Both the position numbers and the translations under genes were made by a program. From the IMG/VR virus record IMGVR_UViG_2695420685_000020: a stretch of DNA of 9,272 nucleotides. One strand, written 5' to 3'. Every line of letters begins with the position of its first letter. The stretch's first letter is position 1. The notes beneath the pieces are model-generated. The model did no database searches. It saw only the letters and a program-made list of their open reading frames with translations, and was not told where the DNA came from. Shown one piece after another: positions 1 through 9,272 of this stretch. Origin of the DNA: a virus. Lineage: Duplodnaviria; Heunggongvirae; Uroviricota; Caudoviricetes.

Positions 1-49
1 CCCCGTCAGTAGCTGAACAGGAGGGACAGCTGATAGAAACAGAAGCCAC
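1..49 (-). CDS. insA: insA of IS1, 5' end only (partial, continues past left edge); apparent GTG start at 49
   Basis: Minus-strand reading from 49 gives GTG GCT TCT GTT TCT ATC AGC TGT CCC TCC TGT TCA GCT ACT GAC GGG = (M)ASVSISCPSCSATDG, the InsA N-terminus as I recall it, preceded by GAGGTG. Confidence 0.55.
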   Translation of the reverse strand, partial: MASVSISCPSCSATDG

Positions 50-104
50 TGGAGCACCTCAAAAACACCATCATACACTAAATCAGTAAGTTGGCAGCAT
101 CACC
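1..104 (-). mobile_element. IS1 insertion sequence, terminal 104 bp (element continues past the left edge); 23-bp terminal inverted repeat at 82-104
   Basis: Reverse complement of 82-104 is GGTGATGCTGCCAACTTACTGAT, the IS1 left terminal inverted repeat as I recall it; the whole of 1-104 matches my recollection of the IS1 left end including the start of insA. The match stops exactly at 104, where gluconokinase coding sequence begins. Confidence 0.75.
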
Positions 105-353
105 GATGGCGACTATGAAACTATTCTCGCGCGAATGCAGCGTCGGGCTGGGCATTTTATGCCGGTAGCGTTACTAAAAAGTCAGTTTGAGGCACTGGAG
201 CGTCCACAAGCAGATGAACAGGATATTGTGCGCATTGATATCAACCATGATATTGCCAATGTCACCGAACAATGTCGGCAGGCTGTGCTGGCGATACGAC
301 AAAACAGAATATGTGCGAAAGAGGGCAGCGCCTCAGATCAGCGCTGCGAATGA
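105..353 (+). pseudogene. idnK: 3' fragment of a gluconokinase gene (IdnK/GntK family), apparently truncated by the IS1 insertion
   Basis: ORF track 135-353 (72 aa) plus in-frame upstream codons from 105 (DGDYETILARMQ...) resemble the gluconokinase C-terminus (LLKSQFEALERPQADE... compare GntK LLVSQFETLQEPGADE). The frame hits TAA at 87-89 inside the IS1 end, so no P-loop N-terminus is present in this window. Position next to ahr and leuX fits idnK. Confidence 0.6.
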
Positions 354-356
354 TTT

Positions 357-1376
357 TCAATAATCGGCTTTCAACACCACGCGGTAACGCGCCTTACCGT
401 CGCGCACATGCTGGATGGCGTCGTTAATTTTCGACATCGGGAACAGTTCGGTGGTCGGCGCAACCTTGCTGCGGGCGGCAAAACGCATCAGCTTACGCAG
501 CTCATAAGGCGTGCCGGTAGCAGAACCAGAGACGCTGCGATCGCCCGCAATTAACGTAAAGGCCGGAACAGACAGCGGCGTGAGAACCGCACCGACCGTA
601 TGGAAATTACCGCCATAGGTCAGCGCCTCAAAATAGGGCTGCCAGTCGAGGCTGACGTTGACGGTGTTGATAATGAGATCAAACTGCCCCGCCAGTGCTT
701 TCAGTGCCTGCGGATCGCGGCTATTCACCACTTTATCGGCACCCATCGCCAGCACTTCCTGCTCTTTCGCCGGATTAGAACTAAAGGCTGTCACCTCGCA
801 TCCCATTGCGTGCAGAAGTTTTATAGCGATATGCCCCAGCCCGCCAATACCAATTACCCCAACGCGGCTGGTAGCAGTGATATGGTGCATCAACAGTGGT
901 TTAAAGACCGTGATACCGCCGCACAACAGCGGCCCGGCGGACTCGATATCAATATTTTCTGGCAGTGGAATCACCCATTGCCAGTCCGCACGCAACTTCT
1001 CGGCAAAGCCACCGCGATTCATAATCGTCGGCACCGCACCTTGCTCGCAGTTGATCTGATTACCGCTAATACAGGCGTCGCAGTGACCACAGCTACGCGC
1101 CGTCCAGCCAATCCCGACACGCTGACCGACCTGCAAACCTTTATCCTGCGCGGCGCTCCCGAGTGCCACCACGCGCCCAATCACCTCATGCCCGGCAACC
1201 AGCGGATATTGTGAAAATCCCCATTCGTTATCGATCATCGACAGATCGGAATGGCAGATCCCGCAGTAATCCACCTGCACTTCAACATCTTGTGGCCTCA
1301 GCTCACCGGGATCGTACTCATAAACTTCCAGTTCTCCGCCCGCTTCTTTTGCGGCATAGCTTTTTATCATCGACAT
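357..1376 (-). CDS. ahr: Zn-dependent NADPH aldehyde reductase Ahr (YjgB), medium-chain dehydrogenase/reductase family, 339 aa
   Basis: ORF track 357-1418 minus. Likely true start is ATG at 1376 (MSMIKSY...) with AGAAGGA Shine-Dalgarno upstream. Zn/ADH motifs present: CGICHSD, GHEVIG, CGHCDAC, and Rossmann GIGGLGH. Stop TGA at 357-359, 3 nt from the convergent idnK stop. Confidence 0.9.
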
Positions 1377-1513
1377 TTTTTGGTCCTTCTCTGGTGTTGT
1401 TTGGGAAGTGTAGAGCATGGCAGGGCGGGGTGCCTGGAGTGTGACAAAGGTTACACATCGCTGTATGCAATGCTGAAAATTTCAGCACTTAGCGAGGTGC
1501 GAGCAAGCTGGCG

Positions 1514-1542
1514 CTTGCATGGTGGCGTGCGACAGGTATAAT
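1514..1542 (+). promoter_or_regulatory. Candidate sigma70 promoter for leuX (-35 CTTGCA/TTGCAT, -10 TATAAT at 1537-1542)
   Basis: Perfect TATAAT hexamer with TTGCAT 16 nt upstream (or CTTGCA at 17 nt), about 30 nt upstream of the mature tRNA 5' end at 1572. Confidence 0.45.
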
Positions 1543-1571
1543 CCACAACGTTTTCCGCATACCTCTTCAGT

Positions 1572-1656
1572 GCCGAAGTGGCGAAATCGGTAGACGCAGT
1601 TGATTCAAAATCAACCGTAGAAATACGTGCCGGTTCGAGTCCGGCCTTCGGCACCA
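1572..1656 (+). tRNA. leuX: tRNA-Leu (anticodon CAA), 85 nt with long variable arm and encoded CCA
   Basis: GCCGAAGTGGCGAAATCGGTAGACGCAGTTGATTCAAAATCAACCGTAGAAATACGTGCCGGTTCGAGTCCGGCCTTCGGCACCA: acceptor stem GCCGAAG/CTTCGGC, anticodon loop TTCAAAA (CAA), T-arm GGTTCGAGTCC. Confidence 0.92.
1637..1656. other. Probable attL core region (3' end of leuX) of the integrated P4-like element; exact core boundaries not determinable
   Basis: Inference only: P4-family integrases integrate into the 3' end of tRNA genes and an integrase gene starts about 150 bp downstream. The matching attR copy would lie beyond the window. Confidence 0.3.
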
Positions 1657-1768
1657 TTATTACTTCCAAGTCCATCCGAGTAAGTCCGATTATCCATTAA
1701 AAATCAATACTTTCAGCGATTTCTACGATCCTGGATCGTCCGAGGTTGTCCGTTGAAATCCGGATGTC

Positions 1769-1791
1769 ATTGGGGGCATAATTGGGGGCAT
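1769..1791 (+). repeat. Tandem 11-bp direct repeat ATTGGGGGCAT x2 (1769-1779 and 1781-1791) just upstream of int
   Basis: Seen directly: cATTGGGGGCATaATTGGGGGCATc. Function unknown; position between the attachment region and the int start suggests an integrase arm-type or regulatory site. Confidence 0.5.
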
Positions 1792-1808
1792 CTTAACTTC
1801 GATTAGAA

Positions 1809-3095
1809 ATGTGCCCCCAAATGAAGCTCAATGCTAGACAAGTCGAGACAGCAAAGCCAAAAGACAAAAGCTACAAAATGGCCGATGGCGGCGGTTTGTA
1901 TCTCGAGGTTTCGGCCAAGGGGTCTAAATACTGGCGCATGAAATACCGACGCCCCTCTGACAAAAAAGAGGATCGCCTCGCTTTTGGTGTTTGGCCGACC
2001 GTGACGCTTGCTGAAGCTAGAAAGAGGAGGGATGAAGCGAAAAAGTTGCTGGCGCAAGGTATAGATCCAAAAGCAGTACAGAAAGAGGCTCAAGCAGAGA
2101 ATGCTGGTGCTTATAATTTTGAAACTATTGCTCGTGAATGGCACGCCAGCAACAAACGTTGGAGTGAGGATCATCGGGCGCGTGTTCTTCGCTATCTAGA
2201 GCTGTATATCTTTCCTTATATTGGCTTGTCTGATATCCGACAGCTTAAAACTAGCCATCTTTTAGCACCGATAAAAAAAGTTGATGCCAGTGGTAAGCAT
2301 GATGTGGCGCAGCGTCTTCAGCAACGTGTTACTGCTATTATGCGCTATGCCGTACAGAACGATTATATAGATTCAAATCCTGCAAGTGATATGGCTGGTG
2401 CGTTATCGACAGCTAAAACGCGGCACTATCCAGCTCTACCATCACATCGTTTTCCTGAGTTCTTAGCACGTCTTGCTGCATATCGTGGTCGTATGATGAC
2501 GAAAATTGCGGTTGAACTTTCTTTATTAACATTTGTTCGTTCCAGTGAGCTACGTTTCGCTCGCTGGGATGAATTCGACTTCGATAAATCTCTATGGCGT
2601 ATACCTGCAAAACGCGAGGAAATTAAAGGCGTACGTTACTCATATAGAGGAATGAAGATGAAGGAAGAGCATCTCGTTCCACTTAGTAGGCAAGCGATAG
2701 GGTTGTTGGAGCAGTTAAAGCAGATTAGTGGTGATAAGACGCTGCTTTTCCCTGGGGATCATGACGCAACTAAGGTTATGAGTGAGAACACTGTTAATAA
2801 TGCATTGCGTGCGATGGGCTATGATACGAAAACAGAAGTTTGCGGACATGGTTTTAGGACAATGGCACGTGGTGCGTTAGGAGAGTCAGGATTATGGAGT
2901 GATGATGCTATTGAACGCCAATTGAGCCATTCGGAACGTAATAATGTGCGAGCTGCGTATATTCATACGTCTGAGCATTTAGATGAGCGCAGACTAATGG
3001 TCCAATGGTGGGCAGATTATCTTTATTCCAACAGAGAGAAGCATATCTCTGCTTTTGAATTTGCAAATAAACTTAATAAAAATAGCCTTGATTAA
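1809..3095 (+). CDS. int: P4-family tyrosine integrase (site-specific recombinase), 428 aa (alternative ATG start at 1821)
   Basis: ORF track 1809-3095. N-terminal arm-binding-type region (AKPKDKSYKMADGGGLYLEV), C-terminal catalytic region with HGFRTMARGAL (H-x-x-R) and RAAYIH (catalytic Tyr). Located directly downstream of a tRNA gene. Confidence 0.9.
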   Translation: MCPQMKLNARQVETAKPKDKSYKMADGGGLYLEVSAKGSKYWRMKYRRPSDKKEDRLAFGVWPTVTLAEARKRRDEAKKLLAQGIDPKAVQKEAQAENAGAYNFETIAREWHASNKRWSEDHRARVLRYLELYIFPYIGLSDIRQLKTSHLLAPIKKVDASGKHDVAQRLQQRVTAIMRYAVQNDYIDSNPASDMAGALSTAKTRHYPALPSHRFPEFLARLAAYRGRMMTKIAVELSLLTFVRSSELRFARWDEFDFDKSLWRIPAKREEIKGVRYSYRGMKMKEEHLVPLSRQAIGLLEQLKQISGDKTLLFPGDHDATKVMSENTVNNALRAMGYDTKTEVCGHGFRTMARGALGESGLWSDDAIERQLSHSERNNVRAAYIHTSEHLDERRLMVQWWADYLYSNREKHISAFEFANKLNKNSLD

Positions 3096-3172
3096 GTCTC
3101 CGCTTAGTTTGAACTAGCCTTCATCAACAGCAATGCTTGTGTCTTTTTAACCTTCACTTAACACCTTCTTAG

Positions 3173-3213
3173 GCAATTATTCCATTGCTTTTAAAAACTA
3201 AGTATTCCTTAGT
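3173..3213. promoter_or_regulatory. Two palindromic operator candidates (C-boxes) upstream of the controller gene: GCAAT-N6-ATTGC (3173-3188) and CTAAG-N5-CTTAG (3198-3212)
   Basis: Seen directly: GCAATtattccATTGC and aCTAAGtattcCTTAGt. Both carry a TATTCC centre and sit 50-90 bp upstream of the C-gene ATG at 3263. From memory, CTAAG-N5-CTTAG is the reported C.EcoO109I binding site. Confidence 0.55.
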
Positions 3214-3262
3214 AATTTCGAGTGTAAAAAGTGCAAACCTACCTCCAAAAAGAGGATTTTCG

Positions 3263-3568
3263 ATGCTTCCAATTAGGTTAAAAAAAGCCCGATTGAATGC
3301 TGGGTTAACTCAAGAACAGCTGGGAATACTTGTTGGCATTGATGAATGCTCTGCCAGTGCTCGCATGAATCAATATGAGAAAGGTAAACATATGCCCGAT
3401 TTTTCACTTACTAAAAAAATCGCTGATTTATTAAATGTCCCTGTCTCATATTTTTACACACCCGAAGATGACTTGGCAGAAATTATTTTGTTGATTAATA
3501 AACTAGACAAAAAACAGCGGTTAATTTTATTAAAAAATTTATCAGATGGATTTATAAGTCATGAATAA
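3263..3568 (+). CDS. Controller (C) protein of an R-M system, XRE-family helix-turn-helix regulator, 101 aa
   Basis: ORF track 3185-3568 begins at a TTG; the internal ATG at 3263 has an AGAGGA Shine-Dalgarno 6 nt upstream (3251-3256). HTH segment LTQEQLGILVGIDECSASARMNQYEKGK. Stop overlaps the start of the next ORF, and palindromic operators lie upstream. Confidence 0.8.
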   Translation: MLPIRLKKARLNAGLTQEQLGILVGIDECSASARMNQYEKGKHMPDFSLTKKIADLLNVPVSYFYTPEDDLAEIILLINKLDKKQRLILLKNLSDGFISHE

Positions 3569-4379
3569 GCAAGAAGTTATACTTAAAGTGCAGGAGTGTG
3601 CTGCGTGGTGGATTTTGGAGAGACAAAGTAAACTAACAAAGTTAATGTCAGAAACAATGTCCATAAATCCGTTTATGACCCCTTTTATTTTTGATTATCA
3701 TTCCCTTAATGATTTTGATGAACTAGTTGAAGCAATAATTGCTAAGCATTTAATGACTGGGCATGATACTGGCTTTGGAAAATTGATTGATGAAAAAATA
3801 CTTCCTAGAGTGTTTGGTGCATATAAATTAGATAAAAGTTATAGAGCTGCCAACGAGCCTTTTATACACCCTTGCTTTGATGAAATAGATCATGTAATAC
3901 AAAGGGATGATGGTAGAATTGAGCTTTTATCTCTTAAGGCAGGGAAATGGACTATTCAATTGACGATGGCTGTCCAACTAAATAAAGCATTTCACGAAAT
4001 CATAAATAATTATCCTGGAGTGGCTGACAATATAGTGGTTGGGGTTTTTTATGGAAATAGCCATGGATTAACTGATAAGTATAGAATCTTACGAGGTATC
4101 AATACTGGTGCAAACCACAATGTGATTGATATTCGTGACAAAGTGCATGTATATGCTGGTAAAGAATTTTGGTCATGGCTTAACAATGGTGAGGCTGAAA
4201 CCCAGCATTGGGTACTTGAAGGTATAGAACGTGCTGTAAAAGAAGCAGATATAAAAGAAAAAAATAAAGATCTTATTGAAAAATTCAAAGAACATGTTGC
4301 AAAGAAGTACAATGAGCAAGTTCTAAATGCTGATGGCACAGCTCAATGGCACAAATTACTTGAAATGATTAATGAATAA
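3561..4379 (+). CDS. Type II restriction endonuclease candidate, 272 aa (possibly EcoO109I-type)
   Basis: ORF track 3561-4379. ATG overlaps the C-gene stop by 8 nt (ATGAATAA). Lies between a C-protein gene and a convergent m5C methyltransferase gene. Contains a plausible PD-(D/E)xK-like segment (FDEIDHV...IELLSLK). Length agrees with my recollection of R.EcoO109I (272 aa). No direct homology check was possible. Confidence 0.7.
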   Translation: MNKQEVILKVQECAAWWILERQSKLTKLMSETMSINPFMTPFIFDYHSLNDFDELVEAIIAKHLMTGHDTGFGKLIDEKILPRVFGAYKLDKSYRAANEPFIHPCFDEIDHVIQRDDGRIELLSLKAGKWTIQLTMAVQLNKAFHEIINNYPGVADNIVVGVFYGNSHGLTDKYRILRGINTGANHNVIDIRDKVHVYAGKEFWSWLNNGEAETQHWVLEGIERAVKEADIKEKNKDLIEKFKEHVAKKYNEQVLNADGTAQWHKLLEMINE

Positions 4380-4407
4380 AAAACTGGCCTAAGGGCCAGT
4401 TTTTTTT
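4378..4407. terminator. Bidirectional intrinsic terminator between the convergent R and M genes
   Basis: AAAAACTGGCC-taag-GGCCAGTTTTTTTT: 7-bp GC-rich stem (4383-4389 / 4394-4400), 4-nt loop, A-tract on the left and T-tract on the right, located in the 38-bp gap between the two stop codons. Confidence 0.65.
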
Positions 4408-4417
4408 ATGACTAATT

Positions 4418-5671
4418 CTAAACTTCTTCTTCAAGGTCGTAGTAAGAAACATCTCCACTATATGCTTGACCATTTTTAAAGAAAGATCTGGTTCTAATAT
4501 GCGGTCTAATATGGGTTTCTATATAATCTGGAGTTACTAAATCAGCAACCTTATTTTCTTGTATACGATGAAGAAGTTCCATAGCAGCTTCCCCTGCAAC
4601 TTTACCTAACCGGACAGGAACTGCGTTACCTATCTGTCTGAATTTTTCTGTAGTTGTACCTTCAAATTTCCAGTAATCAGGAAACTCTTGTATCGCGGCA
4701 GCTTCACCAACAGAAATAGCTCTAAGTTCAGTTGGGTGGCACATACTTGTTCCCGCATGATTTGGCATTGTTACTACTGTGGGTGAAGGAAACTGGAAAG
4801 ATAGTTTCCTCCAGTAAGCACTTCTTCCTCCTTTAAGATACCAGCTTTTTCCCATAGATTCTTTTTGCATTTCTTCTGGCATGCTTCTCCAGTTTCCGCC
4901 AGGTGGAACCATTGAAAGATATTTCAGTTTTCTTGGCGAAAAATTCATGACTTCTGGATATTTATCAACAAAACCGCTCTCTGGGCCAATTACATCCCCC
5001 AGCGTTTTGAATGGCGGAAGATTATCTTCTACTCTATTGCTGAATAAAGGGGAGGCGAAATTGGCTATCATTCCGAAGCGATTACCAATTAAAATAACAC
5101 GCTCCCTAATTTGTGGGGCTCCATAGTTGGCAGCATTAACTACAAAGCAATCCACATGATAACCTAGTTTATTGAATTCGTTAGCTACCCTTTTTATTAG
5201 AGAGCCTTTTTCGAAAGCAGATGCTGCGATTGTGCCTGATAGCTCCTTCTTTTTAGAAGCTGGAACTATAGACATTGATAATAAACCGCGTACGTTTTCC
5301 ATTACGAAAACTTTTGGGTTTAATTCTTTAATCATTCGAACATATTCGAAAATAAGCTGCCCTCTGGCATCTTCTAGCCCTAACCTATTTCCAAAAACAC
5401 TAAATGCTTGGCACGGTGGACCGCCAGCAACTAAATCTATTTCTTCTTTATCATTCACTCCGGCTAGTGCTAATAATTCAGAGCCAGTGCAGTCAACAAT
5501 ACTACCTTCGAATACAGCAAGATTTGGCTTATTAGTTTTAATTGTTTTTAGAGCTGCCTTATCTTGTTCAACGCAAGCTACGAGCTCAAAGCCAGCCTCT
5601 TCGAGACCTAAGTCTAACCCCATTGCGCCACTAAATAGCGAAATAAACTTTTTACTAGACAAAATAATCAC
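4418..5671 (-). CDS. DNA (cytosine-5) methyltransferase, Type II modification enzyme, about 414-417 aa (start codon uncertain: GTG at 5671 or TTG at 5662)
   Basis: ORF track 4418-5671 minus. Canonical m5C-MTase motifs: I FSGAMGLDLG, IV GGPPCQAFS, VI ENVRGL, VIII QIRERV, X GNAVPV. No ATG at the N-terminus; AGGTGA lies upstream of the TTG at 5662. Confidence 0.9.
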   Translation of the reverse strand: MIILSSKKFISLFSGAMGLDLGLEEAGFELVACVEQDKAALKTIKTNKPNLAVFEGSIVDCTGSELLALAGVNDKEEIDLVAGGPPCQAFSVFGNRLGLEDARGQLIFEYVRMIKELNPKVFVMENVRGLLSMSIVPASKKKELSGTIAASAFEKGSLIKRVANEFNKLGYHVDCFVVNAANYGAPQIRERVILIGNRFGMIANFASPLFSNRVEDNLPPFKTLGDVIGPESGFVDKYPEVMNFSPRKLKYLSMVPPGGNWRSMPEEMQKESMGKSWYLKGGRSAYWRKLSFQFPSPTVVTMPNHAGTSMCHPTELRAISVGEAAAIQEFPDYWKFEGTTTEKFRQIGNAVPVRLGKVAGEAAMELLHRIQENKVADLVTPDYIETHIRPHIRTRSFFKNGQAYSGDVSYYDLEEEV

Positions 5672-5804
5672 CTACATACTTAGCAGCCAAATACTAGGAT
5701 ATTGTAAAGGATTAACACTAATCCTCAACTCAAGTTTCAGGGATCTTAGCAGAATCTGCTTTGCAAGGATTCTATGAATGTAAATTAATAGATACTGGCG
5801 CGCA

Positions 5805-5823
5805 GTGCTTTCCCCGCCTCGCC
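5805..5823. other. cos site: 19-nt cohesive-end sequence of P2/P4-type phages (reverse complement of GGCGAGGCGGGGAAAGCAC)
   Basis: Exact 19/19 match at 5805-5823 (GTGCTTTCCCCGCCTCGCC) to the P2/186/P4 cohesive-end sequence as I recall it, located immediately downstream of psu where P4 carries cos. Confidence 0.7.
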
Positions 5824-5923
5824 CGCCCGCTTTGTGGGATGGTTTTAATGCAGTTGCGCTGACACGCTCAGGCCACGCCGGGCGTGGCGCGATCTGCAGA
5901 AAATGAGGCAGGAAAACGCATGC

Positions 5924-5956
5924 AAAGCCATGCACCTTATCGATGCATGGCTTTTT
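5924..5956 (+). terminator. Stem-loop with 3' T-run (AAAGCCATGCA-ccttatcga-TGCATGGCTTTTT); possible terminator or cos-region structure
   Basis: 11-bp perfect inverted repeat, 9-nt loop, followed by TT. Sits between cos and the psu stop. Function and strand uncertain. Confidence 0.3.
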
Positions 5957-5987
5957 CCAGTAAAAACGGGCGGATTTTCGGGGAATT

Positions 5988-6560
5988 TTACACAGACTGA
6001 CGTGATGCCAGTTGCGCACTTTTACGCGAAAAAATCATGTTCTGCGCAGGGGTGAATTTTTCACGGCTGTCATCCACCGAAGCCGCGTCAGGCCTGAATC
6101 CGATGGTCGTAAAAATGTCGCTATCCTGTGCGGAATAATTAATTTTTTCCCCCTTCGCAAGCCAGGAAAGAAGGGCTTCACGCAGGGCATCTGTGGCACG
6201 CTGTATGGCACAGTTTCGGGCAATGGCCGTCAGCTCACTGTAGCCCATCAGCTCCGGTGCCAGTGCCGCCGCCAGTGCTGTGCCGTGCTGCTGCATAAAA
6301 TCATTCAGCCGGTCGCGGATGCTGATGTGCTGAACGGCTTCATGCGAACGAATATAACGACCGGCGGTCTGATTCACCTGCCATTTTCTGACTTCGATAA
6401 TATTGCGTAATTCGTCAAGGCGACTGACGTTTCTGCCTTCTCCTGACAGAAGCCGCAGATATTCCTGTTCGGCCGCTGCCAGCTCATTTTTGCGTTGCAG
6501 CCATGCTGCTTTGTTATTCTGGCAGACCTCAAAAGCCTGCTGTAATGACATTGTGGTCAC
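5988..6560 (-). CDS. psu: Psu (polarity suppression / Rho-antagonist capsid decoration protein) of P4-type satellites, 190 aa with GTG start (alternative ATG at 6551)
   Basis: ORF track 5988-6560 minus. N-terminus xTTMSLQQAFEVCQNNKAAWLQRKNELAAAEQEYLRL closely resembles P4 Psu as I recall it (same 190-aa length). AGGAGA Shine-Dalgarno 7 nt upstream of the GTG. Confidence 0.88.
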   Translation of the reverse strand: MTTMSLQQAFEVCQNNKAAWLQRKNELAAAEQEYLRLLSGEGRNVSRLDELRNIIEVRKWQVNQTAGRYIRSHEAVQHISIRDRLNDFMQQHGTALAAALAPELMGYSELTAIARNCAIQRATDALREALLSWLAKGEKINYSAQDSDIFTTIGFRPDAASVDDSREKFTPAQNMIFSRKSAQLASRQSV

Positions 6561-6574
6561 ACCCCGTCTCCTGA

Positions 6575-6820
6575 TTAATGGTTGAATGGTGAGCTGTAAC
6601 AGCCTTTAACTTTTCGGACAACAGCCGGTGCTGTGCTTGCCGGTGCTGGTTTTTCCTCCGTGACCGGAGAACGAATCACGGCACAAATTGACTCATGCGT
6701 TTTAAATGTCGCCGAACAGTAAATATTCTGGCACTGCAGATAACTTTCTTTGACATTGTCACTCACATACCGGCTGGTGCGGGTATGCGCTGAATGACGA
6801 CAGAAAGGGCAGCGCATCAT
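6575..6820 (-). CDS. Ogr/Delta-family zinc-finger late-gene transcriptional activator, 81 aa, single domain
   Basis: ORF track 6575-6877; true start likely ATG at 6820 (MMRCPFCRHSAHTRTSRY...), overlapping the sid stop as ATGA. Cys4 pattern CPFC...CQNIYC as in P2 Ogr (MFHCPLCQHAAHARTSRY...). Confidence 0.85.
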   Translation of the reverse strand: MMRCPFCRHSAHTRTSRYVSDNVKESYLQCQNIYCSATFKTHESICAVIRSPVTEEKPAPASTAPAVVRKVKGCYSSPFNH

Positions 6821-7551
6821 GACAGCAGTCCTCTGGCCTTCAGCTCTGCTCCCTGCTGGTCCATTTTGTCCTGCCACACCTTGCGCTGTGCCGGTGTGCC
6901 TGCCACCTCATAATCCATGTGCGGGAGTGTTGCCGCTGACAGTCCGGCCAGCCGGAGAACCGGCTCACCGCTGAGGCTGATTTGCATCTGTTTAATTTTC
7001 TGCTCCAGCGATGATTTCACCTGCTGCATGACAGCCCTTTCCGGTGCGACGTAACCCTGATGGCCGGTGGTGTTGGCGAGCGGATTTTCCTGTACCAGAA
7101 TGCTCAGATGCATTGCCCGGACAAGCGCCTCACAGGTTTCATTCAGGGCGTGTTCCAGCTCATGCTCTGCATACAGACTCAGAAGGTGATGATGTGCCTT
7201 CCGGTAGGCGGTGGCCGTGCTGTCACACGCCCCTTTCAGGCGTTCGCGTTCAAAATTCAGCACCACGGCCAGATTGTCATATTCCTGTACCAGCTCCCGG
7301 CGTGCCACGCGCTCAATGTGGCGCTGTTTCAGCTCGTCGCTCAGGACACCACCGGCTGCACGAAAGGCCGTGCGCCAGTCGTCAGCGTCGTTTCCGTCGG
7401 CTTGCGCCAGCGCATTTTTTTCCTGCTCTGCCCGTTCAATGGCCGTGACGGTCTCATCCATCAGGCGGGCGTTCTCAAGATGAGCGACTCTGGCCTTTTC
7501 CAGTTGTGCCAGCGCGGGTTGCAGATATTCAGGGATGGTGTTGTCAGACAT
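6817..7551 (-). CDS. sid: Sid (capsid size determination, external scaffold) protein of P4-type satellites, 244 aa
   Basis: ORF track 6817-7569. ATG at 7551 (MSDNTIPEYLQPALAQLEKAR...) has a GAGGA Shine-Dalgarno 8 nt upstream and gives 244 aa, the length I recall for P4 Sid. Gene order sid-delta-psu matches P4. Confidence 0.85.
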   Translation of the reverse strand: MSDNTIPEYLQPALAQLEKARVAHLENARLMDETVTAIERAEQEKNALAQADGNDADDWRTAFRAAGGVLSDELKQRHIERVARRELVQEYDNLAVVLNFERERLKGACDSTATAYRKAHHHLLSLYAEHELEHALNETCEALVRAMHLSILVQENPLANTTGHQGYVAPERAVMQQVKSSLEQKIKQMQISLSGEPVLRLAGLSAATLPHMDYEVAGTPAQRKVWQDKMDQQGAELKARGLLS

Positions 7552-7623
7552 TTTCCGGCTCCTCGTCACTTCAGGTTAAGAAAATTGTGACGTACACCGG
7601 ACAACAACACGACGCATTGCAGA

Positions 7624-7641
7624 TGTGCCAGCCCTGACACA
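7624..7641. promoter_or_regulatory. Delta/Ogr-type activator dyad TGT-N12-ACA upstream of sid (candidate Psid activator site)
   Basis: TGTgccagccctgacACA at 7624-7641. Centre is about 80 bp upstream of the sid ATG, compatible with an activator site centred near -55 and a 20-30 nt leader. A second dyad, TGTgacgtacaccggACA, lies at 7586-7603. Confidence 0.45.
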
Positions 7642-7720
7642 GGAGACTCATCCTCAGACCGGCAAGCCAGGAAAAGGTCGCAGGAAAAACCGGCTTACTG
7701 TTTGTTTTTTTATATTTTAC

Positions 7721-7824
7721 TGTTCACCTCTGTTCACCTTAATAAAAAAGATAAGTAATACAGTAAATTAAATGGTGAACAATCGCAGTAATGACTGTTC
7801 ACCGTCTGTTCACCACTGTTCACC
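7721..7824. repeat. Iteron cluster of the octamer TGTTCACC (crr-like cis replication region / alpha primase binding sites)
   Basis: Direct copies at 7721-7728, 7731-7738, 7796-7803, 7807-7814, 7817-7824 and one inverted copy GGTGAACA at 7774-7781. TGTTCACC is the type I iteron of P4 ori/crr as I recall it. Located between sid and vis. Confidence 0.65.
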
Positions 7825-7982
7825 CGTTCATGGACTTTTTGTGCTGTTTATTACTTTTTATTTTTATTAATTAACTGAAATAAATAAGAAAAAACAATTT
7901 GTATTTCACTATAATTTTTTCCAGCTCCTTCCAGAGCGTTTTAAAGCCATCTGGCGCTGATGTACAAAAAATACACAGCCAT

Positions 7983-8000
7983 TGTAAGACTGCCGGAACA
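7983..8000. promoter_or_regulatory. Delta/Ogr-type dyad TGT-N12-ACA upstream of vis (candidate late-left promoter activator site)
   Basis: TGTaagactgccggaACA at 7983-8000, about 110 bp upstream of the vis ATG. Confidence 0.4.
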
Positions 8001-8102
8001 AATCCCCCCTGTTGCGTCTGCCGAAAATATTCACAAAATAAAGCGCTACCCGAAGCCGGACGGACTTATCCGGTGCTGTATGGACATTAACGAGGTAGCC
8101 CG

Positions 8103-8369
8103 ATGCAAGCTGTTTTTTCTTCCCCGTCTCCCGCCCCTGTGACGCCACTGATGCCGCTGCCGGACATCACACAGGAGCGTTTTCTACGTCTTCCGGAAGT
8201 GATGCACCTGTGCGGCCTGTCACGCTCGACCATCTACGAACTCATCCGTAAGGGGGAATTTCCGCCGCAGGTGAGTCTTGGCGGTAAAAATGTGGCCTGG
8301 CTGCACTCTGAAGTCACCGCATGGATGGCCGGGCGCATTGCCGGACGCAAACGGGGGTACGACGCATGA
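8103..8369 (+). CDS. vis: Vis/AlpA-family small DNA-binding regulator (P4 Vis-like), 88 aa
   Basis: ORF track 8103-8369. ATG with GAGGT 7 nt upstream. AlpA-type HTH segment [45 protein letters not shown]. Length equals P4 orf88 (vis) as I recall it. Confidence 0.8.
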
Positions 8370-8404
8370 TGATGCCCGCTCTGCAAAAACTCCCTTTTTC
8401 TGGC

Positions 8405-8434
8405 TTGCCTTTTTCCGGCATTTGCGGATATAGT
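8405..8434 (+). promoter_or_regulatory. Candidate sigma70 promoter (TTGCCT-N18-TATAGT) for the immunity/left operon (PLE-like)
   Basis: -35 TTGCCT at 8405-8410 and -10 TATAGT at 8429-8434, just downstream of vis and upstream of the complementary-box leader. Confidence 0.35.
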
Positions 8435-8465
8435 TTTTCCGCTGCCGCAAAATCGGCAGCCGGGC

Positions 8466-8757
8466 GTGAGAACCCGAGCAATTCACAGGCGACATATGAC
8501 GCGCCACGCGTCTTTTTTTGTGTCGCAATCAATGCCACAGAGCGCCAGATTATGGTGTGGTGTGTGGTCAGTCGTGCAGATGGCATTCCGTGCATCCTGC
8601 CCGCGTCCGCTCATTATGCCGCAGAGTCAATGGTAGCTCAGGCGGGGCAGCCTCCGGGCTGGCCGGTATCCTGTGAAGCCGGTATTCTCACCCCCGTCTG
8701 GGCTATCGCCATCGAGCGTGAGAACTCCGGCGATAGCGTTATTTGCTATTCACAGGA
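8466..8757 (+). ncRNA. Immunity-type leader with CI/c4-like antisense boxes: box A 8466-8489, complementary box B 8669-8691, box C 8718-8757 (overlaps the RBS of the downstream small ORF); RNA boundaries unknown
   Basis: GTGAGAA...TTCACAGG occurs at 8466-8489 and at 8718-8757. Its reverse complement CCTGTGAA...TTCTCAC occurs between them at 8670-8691. Box C ends in AGGAGG, the Shine-Dalgarno of the ORF starting at 8768. Confidence 0.35.
8498..8519 (+). terminator. Intrinsic terminator: GACGCG-cca-CGCGTC followed by T7
   Basis: 6-bp GC stem at 8498-8503 / 8507-8512 with T-run at 8513-8519, about 60-80 nt downstream of the candidate promoter. Confidence 0.5.
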
Positions 8758-8767
8758 GGCTGCCATC

Positions 8768-8965
8768 ATGGCTACAACCCTTACCCCCTCACACCCTGAA
8801 TTTGTCTTTGTGTTTGCGGCTGTCCGTCGCGCAGACCGTCATCCCCGTATCTGTATGCTTCGCACCGTCGCCGGTGATGAACGCAGTGCCCGCCGTTCCC
8901 TTGTCCGTGACTATGTGCTCTCCCTTGCTGCCCGTCTGCCGGTGGTGGAGGTGTCCCGTGCGTAA
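8768..8965 (+). CDS. Small Icd/Kil-like protein (65 aa), first gene after the immunity leader
   Basis: ATG at 8768 with AGGAGG 8 nt upstream ([65 protein letters not shown]). It is the C-terminal part of track ORF 8321-8965, whose upstream portion is the non-coding leader. Family assignment is by position and recollection of P4-like annotations only. Confidence 0.55.
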
Positions 8966-9245
8966 TAAAAAAGCCCCTCAGACCGTCTCAGCACGTCATG
9001 ACGCCCGTGAACACCTCAGCATTGAGGCTTACCATAAGCTCAACCGCGCCAGCGCCGTATCCCAGTTTGTTGGGGGTGATTTGATTCACCGTGAACTCTC
9101 CGGCCTGCATCAGCTCTACATTCCGCATATTTTCAGTTACCTGAATGAAGATATTGATTTTGTGCTGAATGAACTGAAAGCCAAAGGCCTGTGCCGCGAT
9201 TTTCTCGCCCAGCAGAAAGACCGGGGAGACAGGACGCATGTTTGA
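8958..9245 (+). CDS. Hypothetical protein (95 aa) with GTG start overlapping the preceding stop (GTGCGTAA)
   Basis: Open frame to TGA at 9243-9245 with no in-frame ATG. GTG at 8958 is preceded by GGAGGT (8947-8952) at 5-nt spacing. Corresponds to the 3' part of track ORF 8673-9245. Confidence 0.45.
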
Positions 9246-9272
9246 TTTTCCCCAGCCCGGTGAGATTTACCG
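9238..9272 (+). CDS. 5' end of a further ORF ([11 protein letters not shown]...), partial, continues past the right edge
   Basis: ATG at 9238 overlaps the preceding TGA (ATGTTTGA), with GGGGAGA/AGGA upstream. Only 11 codons are visible. Confidence 0.25.
   Translation, partial: MFDFPQPGEIY

Follow-up and report, generated by a model that had tools for sequence, protein, structure and literature searches.

IS1 is an insertion sequence of 768 bp with an insA-insB′ gene pair read through a −1 frameshift. It transposes by way of the frameshift product, InsAB′, and normally duplicates 9 bp of its target. Among the IS1 copies of Escherichia coli K-12, a simple insertion flanked by such a duplication is the commonest state. 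The idnK gene (also known as gntV) encodes the thermosensitive gluconate kinase of the GntII/L-idonate locus of E. coli, which comprises idnK and idnDOTR; GntK, as is established in E. coli physiology, can phosphorylate gluconate in place of IdnK. An insertion sequence has been met in this gene before: in a laboratory-evolved strain, an IS4-like element was reported at IdnK residue 167 (bioRxiv 10.1101/2024.07.31.606091).

Here, we describe an IS1 end that abuts idnK within a stretch of 9,272 nucleotides (the window), and compare it with the closest known cases. There are three points of comparison. First, the terminal 104 nt are those of IS1A and IS1B of E. coli K-12 and relatives, including the left inverted repeat, the position of the insA promoter, and the InsA N-terminus; the window differs in being cut inside IS1, and holds 104 of the 768 nt of the element. 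Second, the window shares nt 316–564 of idnK, without a difference, with K-12, B, and C strains, as well as the gene order, in which idnK converges on ahr and is followed by leuX; unlike intact idnK, it has IS1 in place of codons 1–105, the P-loop included. Third, the locus and the mode of inactivation (by an IS, with or without adjacent deletion) are those of the other IS-hit idn loci, namely those of strains 1008S13, F11, isolate 23, OkiPb01710, and the evolved strain, whereas the IS lies elsewhere in those loci, and none of 5,426 complete E. coli genomes has the junction at idnK nt 316.

The IS1 end

The first 104 nt of the window (1..104, minus strand) correspond to IS1 nucleotides 1–104, the left, insA-proximal end of the element. 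Three IS1 copies from complete E. coli chromosomes served for comparison. Identity is 104/104, with no mismatch or gap, to both the IS1A of strain F11 and the IS1B of isolate 23; the copy in strain 1008S13, a divergent third one, is 97% identical to the IS1 end of the window. When the three copies are aligned with the window, the similarity stops exactly after ...GCATCACC, at position 104. The preliminary description had placed the end of an IS1 terminal inverted repeat at this very base, and the alignment bears it out.

The ~23-bp terminal inverted repeat by which the IS1 family is recognized is found at 82..104 (minus strand). It reads GGTGATGCTGCCAACTTACTGAT, is the same in IS1A and IS1B, and is an imperfect inverted copy of the right repeat (IRR), GGTAATGACTCCAACTTATTGAT, found in F11. 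Further in, the first 16 codons of insA (VASVSISCPSCSATDG; 2..49, minus strand) begin with a GTG at 47–49, which is the IS1 transposase start annotated by RefSeq in F11. As in the family at large, this start lies ~55 nt from the left repeat (IRL), and the 16 codons carry the zinc-finger N-terminus (M/V)ASVSISCPSCSATDG. The sole promoter-like site in window 1–1700 lies at the IRL (70..97, minus strand, read from 97 to 70; −35 CTGCCA, −10 TATGAT) and is directed into IS1; from its position, we take it to be the insA promoter. No such site directed out of the element was found in window 1–1700. Because the end present is the IRL, next to insA, IS1 transcription runs leftwards, away from the idnK fragment.

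The idnK remnant

Position 105 is the first base of idnK codon 106 (Asp). From there to position 353 (105..353, plus strand), the window carries codons 106–187 and the TGA stop codon, with 100% identity to idnK nt 316–564 and full identity to the K-12, B, and C-type gene. Gluconokinase coding sequence in frame from 105, as first proposed, is therefore upheld by this identity. The loss of an N-terminal half had also been proposed; the loss itself stands, and its extent can be refined, since the break falls between codons 105 and 106 of 187 and slightly more than half of the protein (residues 1–105, 56%) is missing. The remaining claims about the gene were likewise sound. The P-loop, GVSGSGKT, occupies residues 10–17 of intact IdnK, outside the fragment. 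A TAA in the idnK reading frame (87..89, plus strand), seen in the translation of 60–353, lies inside IS1 and shuts off read-through from IS1 into the fragment. The kinase gene is interrupted, as is evident from the IS1 end abutting codon 106 and from the partial match to the IdnK model NF007336: the fragment matches only the C-terminal 40% of the model (positions 106–176 of 176), and its 139 bits fall short of both the cut-off (304) and the score of intact IdnK (395.8 bits).

Orthology of the fragment to E. coli idnK follows from identity and synteny. It is convergent with ahr and near leuX, and window 105–1500 has 100% nucleotide identity to many E. coli chromosomes annotated idnK/ahr. Membership among functional gluconokinases is another matter, since the fragment gives no full-length match above the curated cut-off (NF007336/TIGR01313) and, starting at residue 106, has no N-terminal P-loop (Walker A; GxxGxGK[ST]). 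Judged from its sequence, the fragment is a remnant of a gluconokinase family member rather than a functional one; it cannot act as a kinase because there is no P-loop, a TAA in the IS stops read-through, and no outward promoter-like site is found. The idnK gene of the source strain is therefore dead. Its convergent neighbor ahr and leuX are not affected. The first in-frame start after the TAA at 87–89 is an ATG at 135, which yields an ORF of 72 aa from Met116 onward (135..353, plus strand; taken from the ORF list). This ORF is not a functional gene. The exact 72-aa protein is on record under the names “D-gluconate kinase” or “shikimate kinase”.

The proposed event

An IS1 of the IS1A/IS1B type very probably transposed into chromosomal idnK between codons 105 and 106. 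Its IRL abuts idnK nt 316, and insA reads away from the fragment that remains. The event would have been a standard cut-or-copy transposition by InsAB′, in which 9 bp of target are normally duplicated, here GATGGCGAC. This candidate target site (105..113, either strand; idnK nt 316–324) is positioned from the junction. Its first base is G and its last base is C, and it lies at the 3′ margin of the AT-rich (37–42% GC) 5′ part of the gene; the target preference of IS1, as reported, agrees with both the G...C ends and the AT-rich edge. A second copy of GATGGCGAC would be expected beyond the IS only if the insertion is a simple one. The convergent neighbor, ahr, is unaffected. Because GntK phosphorylates gluconate and most E. 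coli lack the idn locus, we expect the phenotypic cost of losing idnK to be small.

Occurrence of the junction

In a megablast search with window 1–1500, none of 5,426 complete E. coli genomes matched in a single piece. The matches that covered both parts of the query were three two-piece ones, in which IS1 lies in idnD at three different sites. The exact 36-mer spanning the junction is absent from GTDB species representatives, JGI metagenomes, and IMG/VR, and a relaxed 28-mer with the C/T allele is absent from GTDB representatives. Nor are partial proteins of 83 and 87 aa, whose N-termini would derive from the IS, on record. A near-identical strain was reached by another route, by following the least common of the window's proteins, a prophage protein of 244 aa found on 29 contigs, and not the break. 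The contig concerned (L046; DBFXIM010000056.1 of GCA_048126935.1), from a draft isolate assembly, matches window 108–9272 with 2 mismatches in 9,165 nt; its end, at position 108, falls 3 nt short of the junction. A break near the junction is expected where short-read assembly meets a multicopy IS. Because L046 stops 3 nt from the junction, and because the exact junction is absent from the collections searched, we conclude that the insertion is real and lineage-specific.

Two apparent markers of the insertion proved misleading. The 72-aa ORF, on record in hundreds of contig sets, was rejected as a marker: all the long contigs inspected derive it from frameshifted idnK, not from IS1, its sources being noisy long-read assemblies and a true S. 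sonnei allele in which the gene is divided into ORFs of 104 and 72 aa. Contigs with an end at idnK nt 312–326 were mostly rejected as evidence of an IS. Many metagenome and Logan contigs begin or stop in this interval, and their extensions show native bases (TA...). The clustering of contig ends there is due to polymorphisms, not to IS1; the polymorphisms near the junction are C/T at nt 324 and, at codon 105, TTA>TGA or a −1 frameshift. Among such contigs, only L046 is informative, as the prophage protein and not its end led to it, and a second isolate contig, L065 (see below), is at most weakly so.

Independent pseudogene alleles of idnK with point mutations at or near codon 105 are seen in L025, L026 (S. 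sonnei-labelled), L004, L009, L012, L071, and L081. Their types include a split into ORFs of 104 + 72 aa, a TTA>TGA nonsense mutation (L071), and a small deletion (L081). The polymorphisms at codon 105 and the C/T at nt 324 fall where contig ends accumulate in metagenome and Logan assemblies. Some isolate assemblies are also broken inside idnK (L031, L051, and L053, ~5.8-kb contigs; L073; and L062); these contigs start at idnK nt 315 or 318, or end at nt 314 or 323. In L031, a native base A precedes GATGGC, so this is not the IS1 junction of the window. Such breaks could stem from another IS, inserted independently close by, or from a quirk of assembly.

Simple insertion or IS1-mediated deletion

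What lies beyond the IS depends on how the element came to its present position. The state that is marginally the likeliest, at about an even chance, is a simple insertion that left the 5′ half of idnK, and idnDOTR, on the far side. Such an insertion would place the IRR end of IS1 against ...CTCTGGTTAGATGGCGAC, and the left junction would read ...TTAGATGGCGAC joined directly to GGTAATGACTCC.... The strongest alternative, which we regard as a real possibility somewhat short of an even chance, is an adjacent deletion by intramolecular transposition of an IS1 further left, or later recombination between two IS1 copies. Either would have removed or relocated the 5′ half of idnK, possibly along with idnD/O/T/R or more, and the IRR would abut unrelated DNA with no repeat of GATGGCGAC.

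Precedent at the locus itself is mixed: the IS1 in idnD of 1008S13 has a target duplication, but two of the three IS1 copies at the idn locus of complete genomes (those of F11 and isolate 23) have none, which speaks for a deletion or recombination. The IS1 copies of K-12 point the other way, toward the simple insertions with duplications that are the commonest state there. Also in favor of deletion are the absence of a fusion protein joining the IdnK N-terminus to IS1 from the protein collection and the absence of a left-junction sequence from JGI metagenomes. For the fusion, read-through proteins of the form IdnK(1–107/108)::IS1 IRR, with duplications of 7–10 bp, had no exact match among ~15 billion proteins, and neither did partial fusion forms with 1–4 IS-derived residues. 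The same collection includes a genome with four exact window proteins (CTT61920, CTT62024, CTT62070, and CTT62113). In a fuzzy protein search, which covers cluster representatives only, no representative covered the IS-derived tail of the 134-aa fusion. The predicted pattern of left-junction DNA was absent from JGI metagenomes. The missing fusion protein is, however, a weak argument: PGAP gives no proteins for pseudogenes, clustering hides members, and variants defeat the exact look-up, for which one substitution is enough. Taken together, the negative searches for fusions and junctions tilt weakly toward deletion.

Contig ends in two isolates offer weak support for the simple insertion. L065, from the isolate assembly GCA_044698635.1, stops at idnK nt 321, and L046 starts at nt 319, so that each end lies 3 nt inside the putative 316–324 duplication. 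This is the symmetry that a 9-bp duplication combined with uniform trimming of contig ends would give. The two samples differ, however, and contig ends gather at nt 312–326 for the unrelated reason given above.

A third reading is that mis-assembly or a chimeric contig joined the IS1 end to idnK, and that idnK is intact in the organism. The start of the window does fall inside a multicopy repeat, and its 104 nt of IS1 equal the overhang of a de Bruijn assembler with k=105; indeed, given this 104-nt overhang, the source contig probably ends at the left edge of the window. But the join falls at the exact terminal base of the IRL, which is a signature of transposition and not of a repeat-collapse error, and an intact idnK in an isolate would assemble straight through, whereas L046, assembled independently from a near-identical strain, likewise stops within 3 nt of the junction. 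Because of this break and the join at the exact tip of the inverted repeat, an artefact is very unlikely indeed. Neither the similarity to IS1 nor that to idnK is due to chance.

Insertion sequences and loss at the idn locus

The idnK gene is present in 2,053 of the 5,426 complete E. coli genomes; 62% are without it. In many strains, the whole idn cluster (idnK and idnDOTR) is absent and yjgR directly adjoins ahr. In such idn-less examples (L015, L019–L023, L042, L043, and L050), matches to the window begin at 364–367, past the idnK stop codon.

Among the genomes that bear idnK, there are 11 in which one place covers <80% of the gene. One of these, OkiPb01710 (NZ_AP042666.1), has idnK split by IS30 at ~nt 260 and an IS1A in idnO. 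Three other chromosomes carry IS1 elsewhere in the locus. In strain 1008S13, the IS1 in idnD is flanked by a perfect duplication of 9 bp, CGGTGCCTT. In F11, IS1A joins the 5′ end of idnD to an unrelated gene, and in isolate 23, pieces of idnT and idnD are joined by IS1B and idnO has been lost; neither copy has a target duplication, and for this reason we regard both as deletions or rearrangements.

It can be argued that the idn locus, and this stretch of idnK especially, is a recurrent target of IS insertion and IS1 deletion because its loss is selected rather than simply tolerated. Four separate IS1 events and an IS30 in natural strains, together with the IS4-like hit in the laboratory, speak for this reading, as do the frameshift and nonsense alleles at codon 105 and the fact that 62% of complete genomes lack the locus altogether. 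Nevertheless, we consider selected loss improbable. If it were true, the window would be one step of convergent decay.

The region downstream of idnK

The chromosomal backbone (105–1656) is identical to that of K-12, B, and C-type E. coli; idnK-ahr alleles labelled S. sonnei have only 96.5% identity to the window, and S. sonnei was rejected on this ground as the source. The ahr gene (357..1376, minus strand), which encodes an NADPH-dependent aldehyde reductase, is intact and convergent with idnK (NF047908, 553.7 bits against a cut-off of 470; annotation of matching genomes). It is followed by leuX (1572..1656, plus strand; ARAGORN and the Rfam tRNA model), the tRNA-Leu(CAA) gene that serves as the attachment site of a P4-like element.

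The remainder of the window (1657–9272) is a P4-like satellite prophage, integrated at leuX and running past the right end of the window. Its genes are those for an integrase (1821–3095), psu (5988–6560, minus strand), ogr/delta (6575–6820, minus strand), the 244-aa protein, named “glycoprotein 3” (6817–7551, minus strand), alpA (8103–8369), an icd/ash-like gene (8366–8965), and a derepression protein (8958–9245). In the variable hotspot of P4 between int and psu, there is a type II restriction-modification module (3263–5671) that consists of a C protein (3263–3568), a restriction endonuclease of 272 aa (3561–4379), and an m5C methyltransferase (4418–5671, minus strand). The exact proteins of the module are named EcoO109IR and Eco0109IREP in their sources (Q9RPJ3 and Q9RPJ4), which makes it the EcoO109I system. 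The placement of the module fits P4-satellite defense hotspots as outlined in PMC9122126.

Three Rfam matches above the gathering score lie near the right end: the a1/b1 targets of C4 (8428–8480), isrK (8441–8518), and the C4 antisense RNA (8626–8713). From these matches, 8428–8713 is a predicted P4-type RNA immunity region, which overlaps the icd/ash-like ORF. P4-like relatives, compared at 6545–6807 (L014, L015, and L017), have an ogr/delta of 81 aa or 166 aa. The window, L016, L021, and L023 have the 81-aa type, and megablast alignments break at 6545–6807 for the 166-aa type.

Implications

IS1, idnK, and the knock-out of an accessory gene by an IS are all already known, and the window is an ordinary, strain-specific case. 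Its significance beyond annotation is small, and it touches no open question. For annotation, the 72-aa ORF at 135–353 should be labelled as a pseudogene remnant, not as “D-gluconate kinase” or “shikimate kinase”. The junction at idnK nt 316 serves as a clean marker of the lineage, since none of the 5,426 complete E. coli genomes searched has it. For the biology of E. coli, the window is one further example of the IS-driven erosion of the accessory L-idonate/GntII locus.
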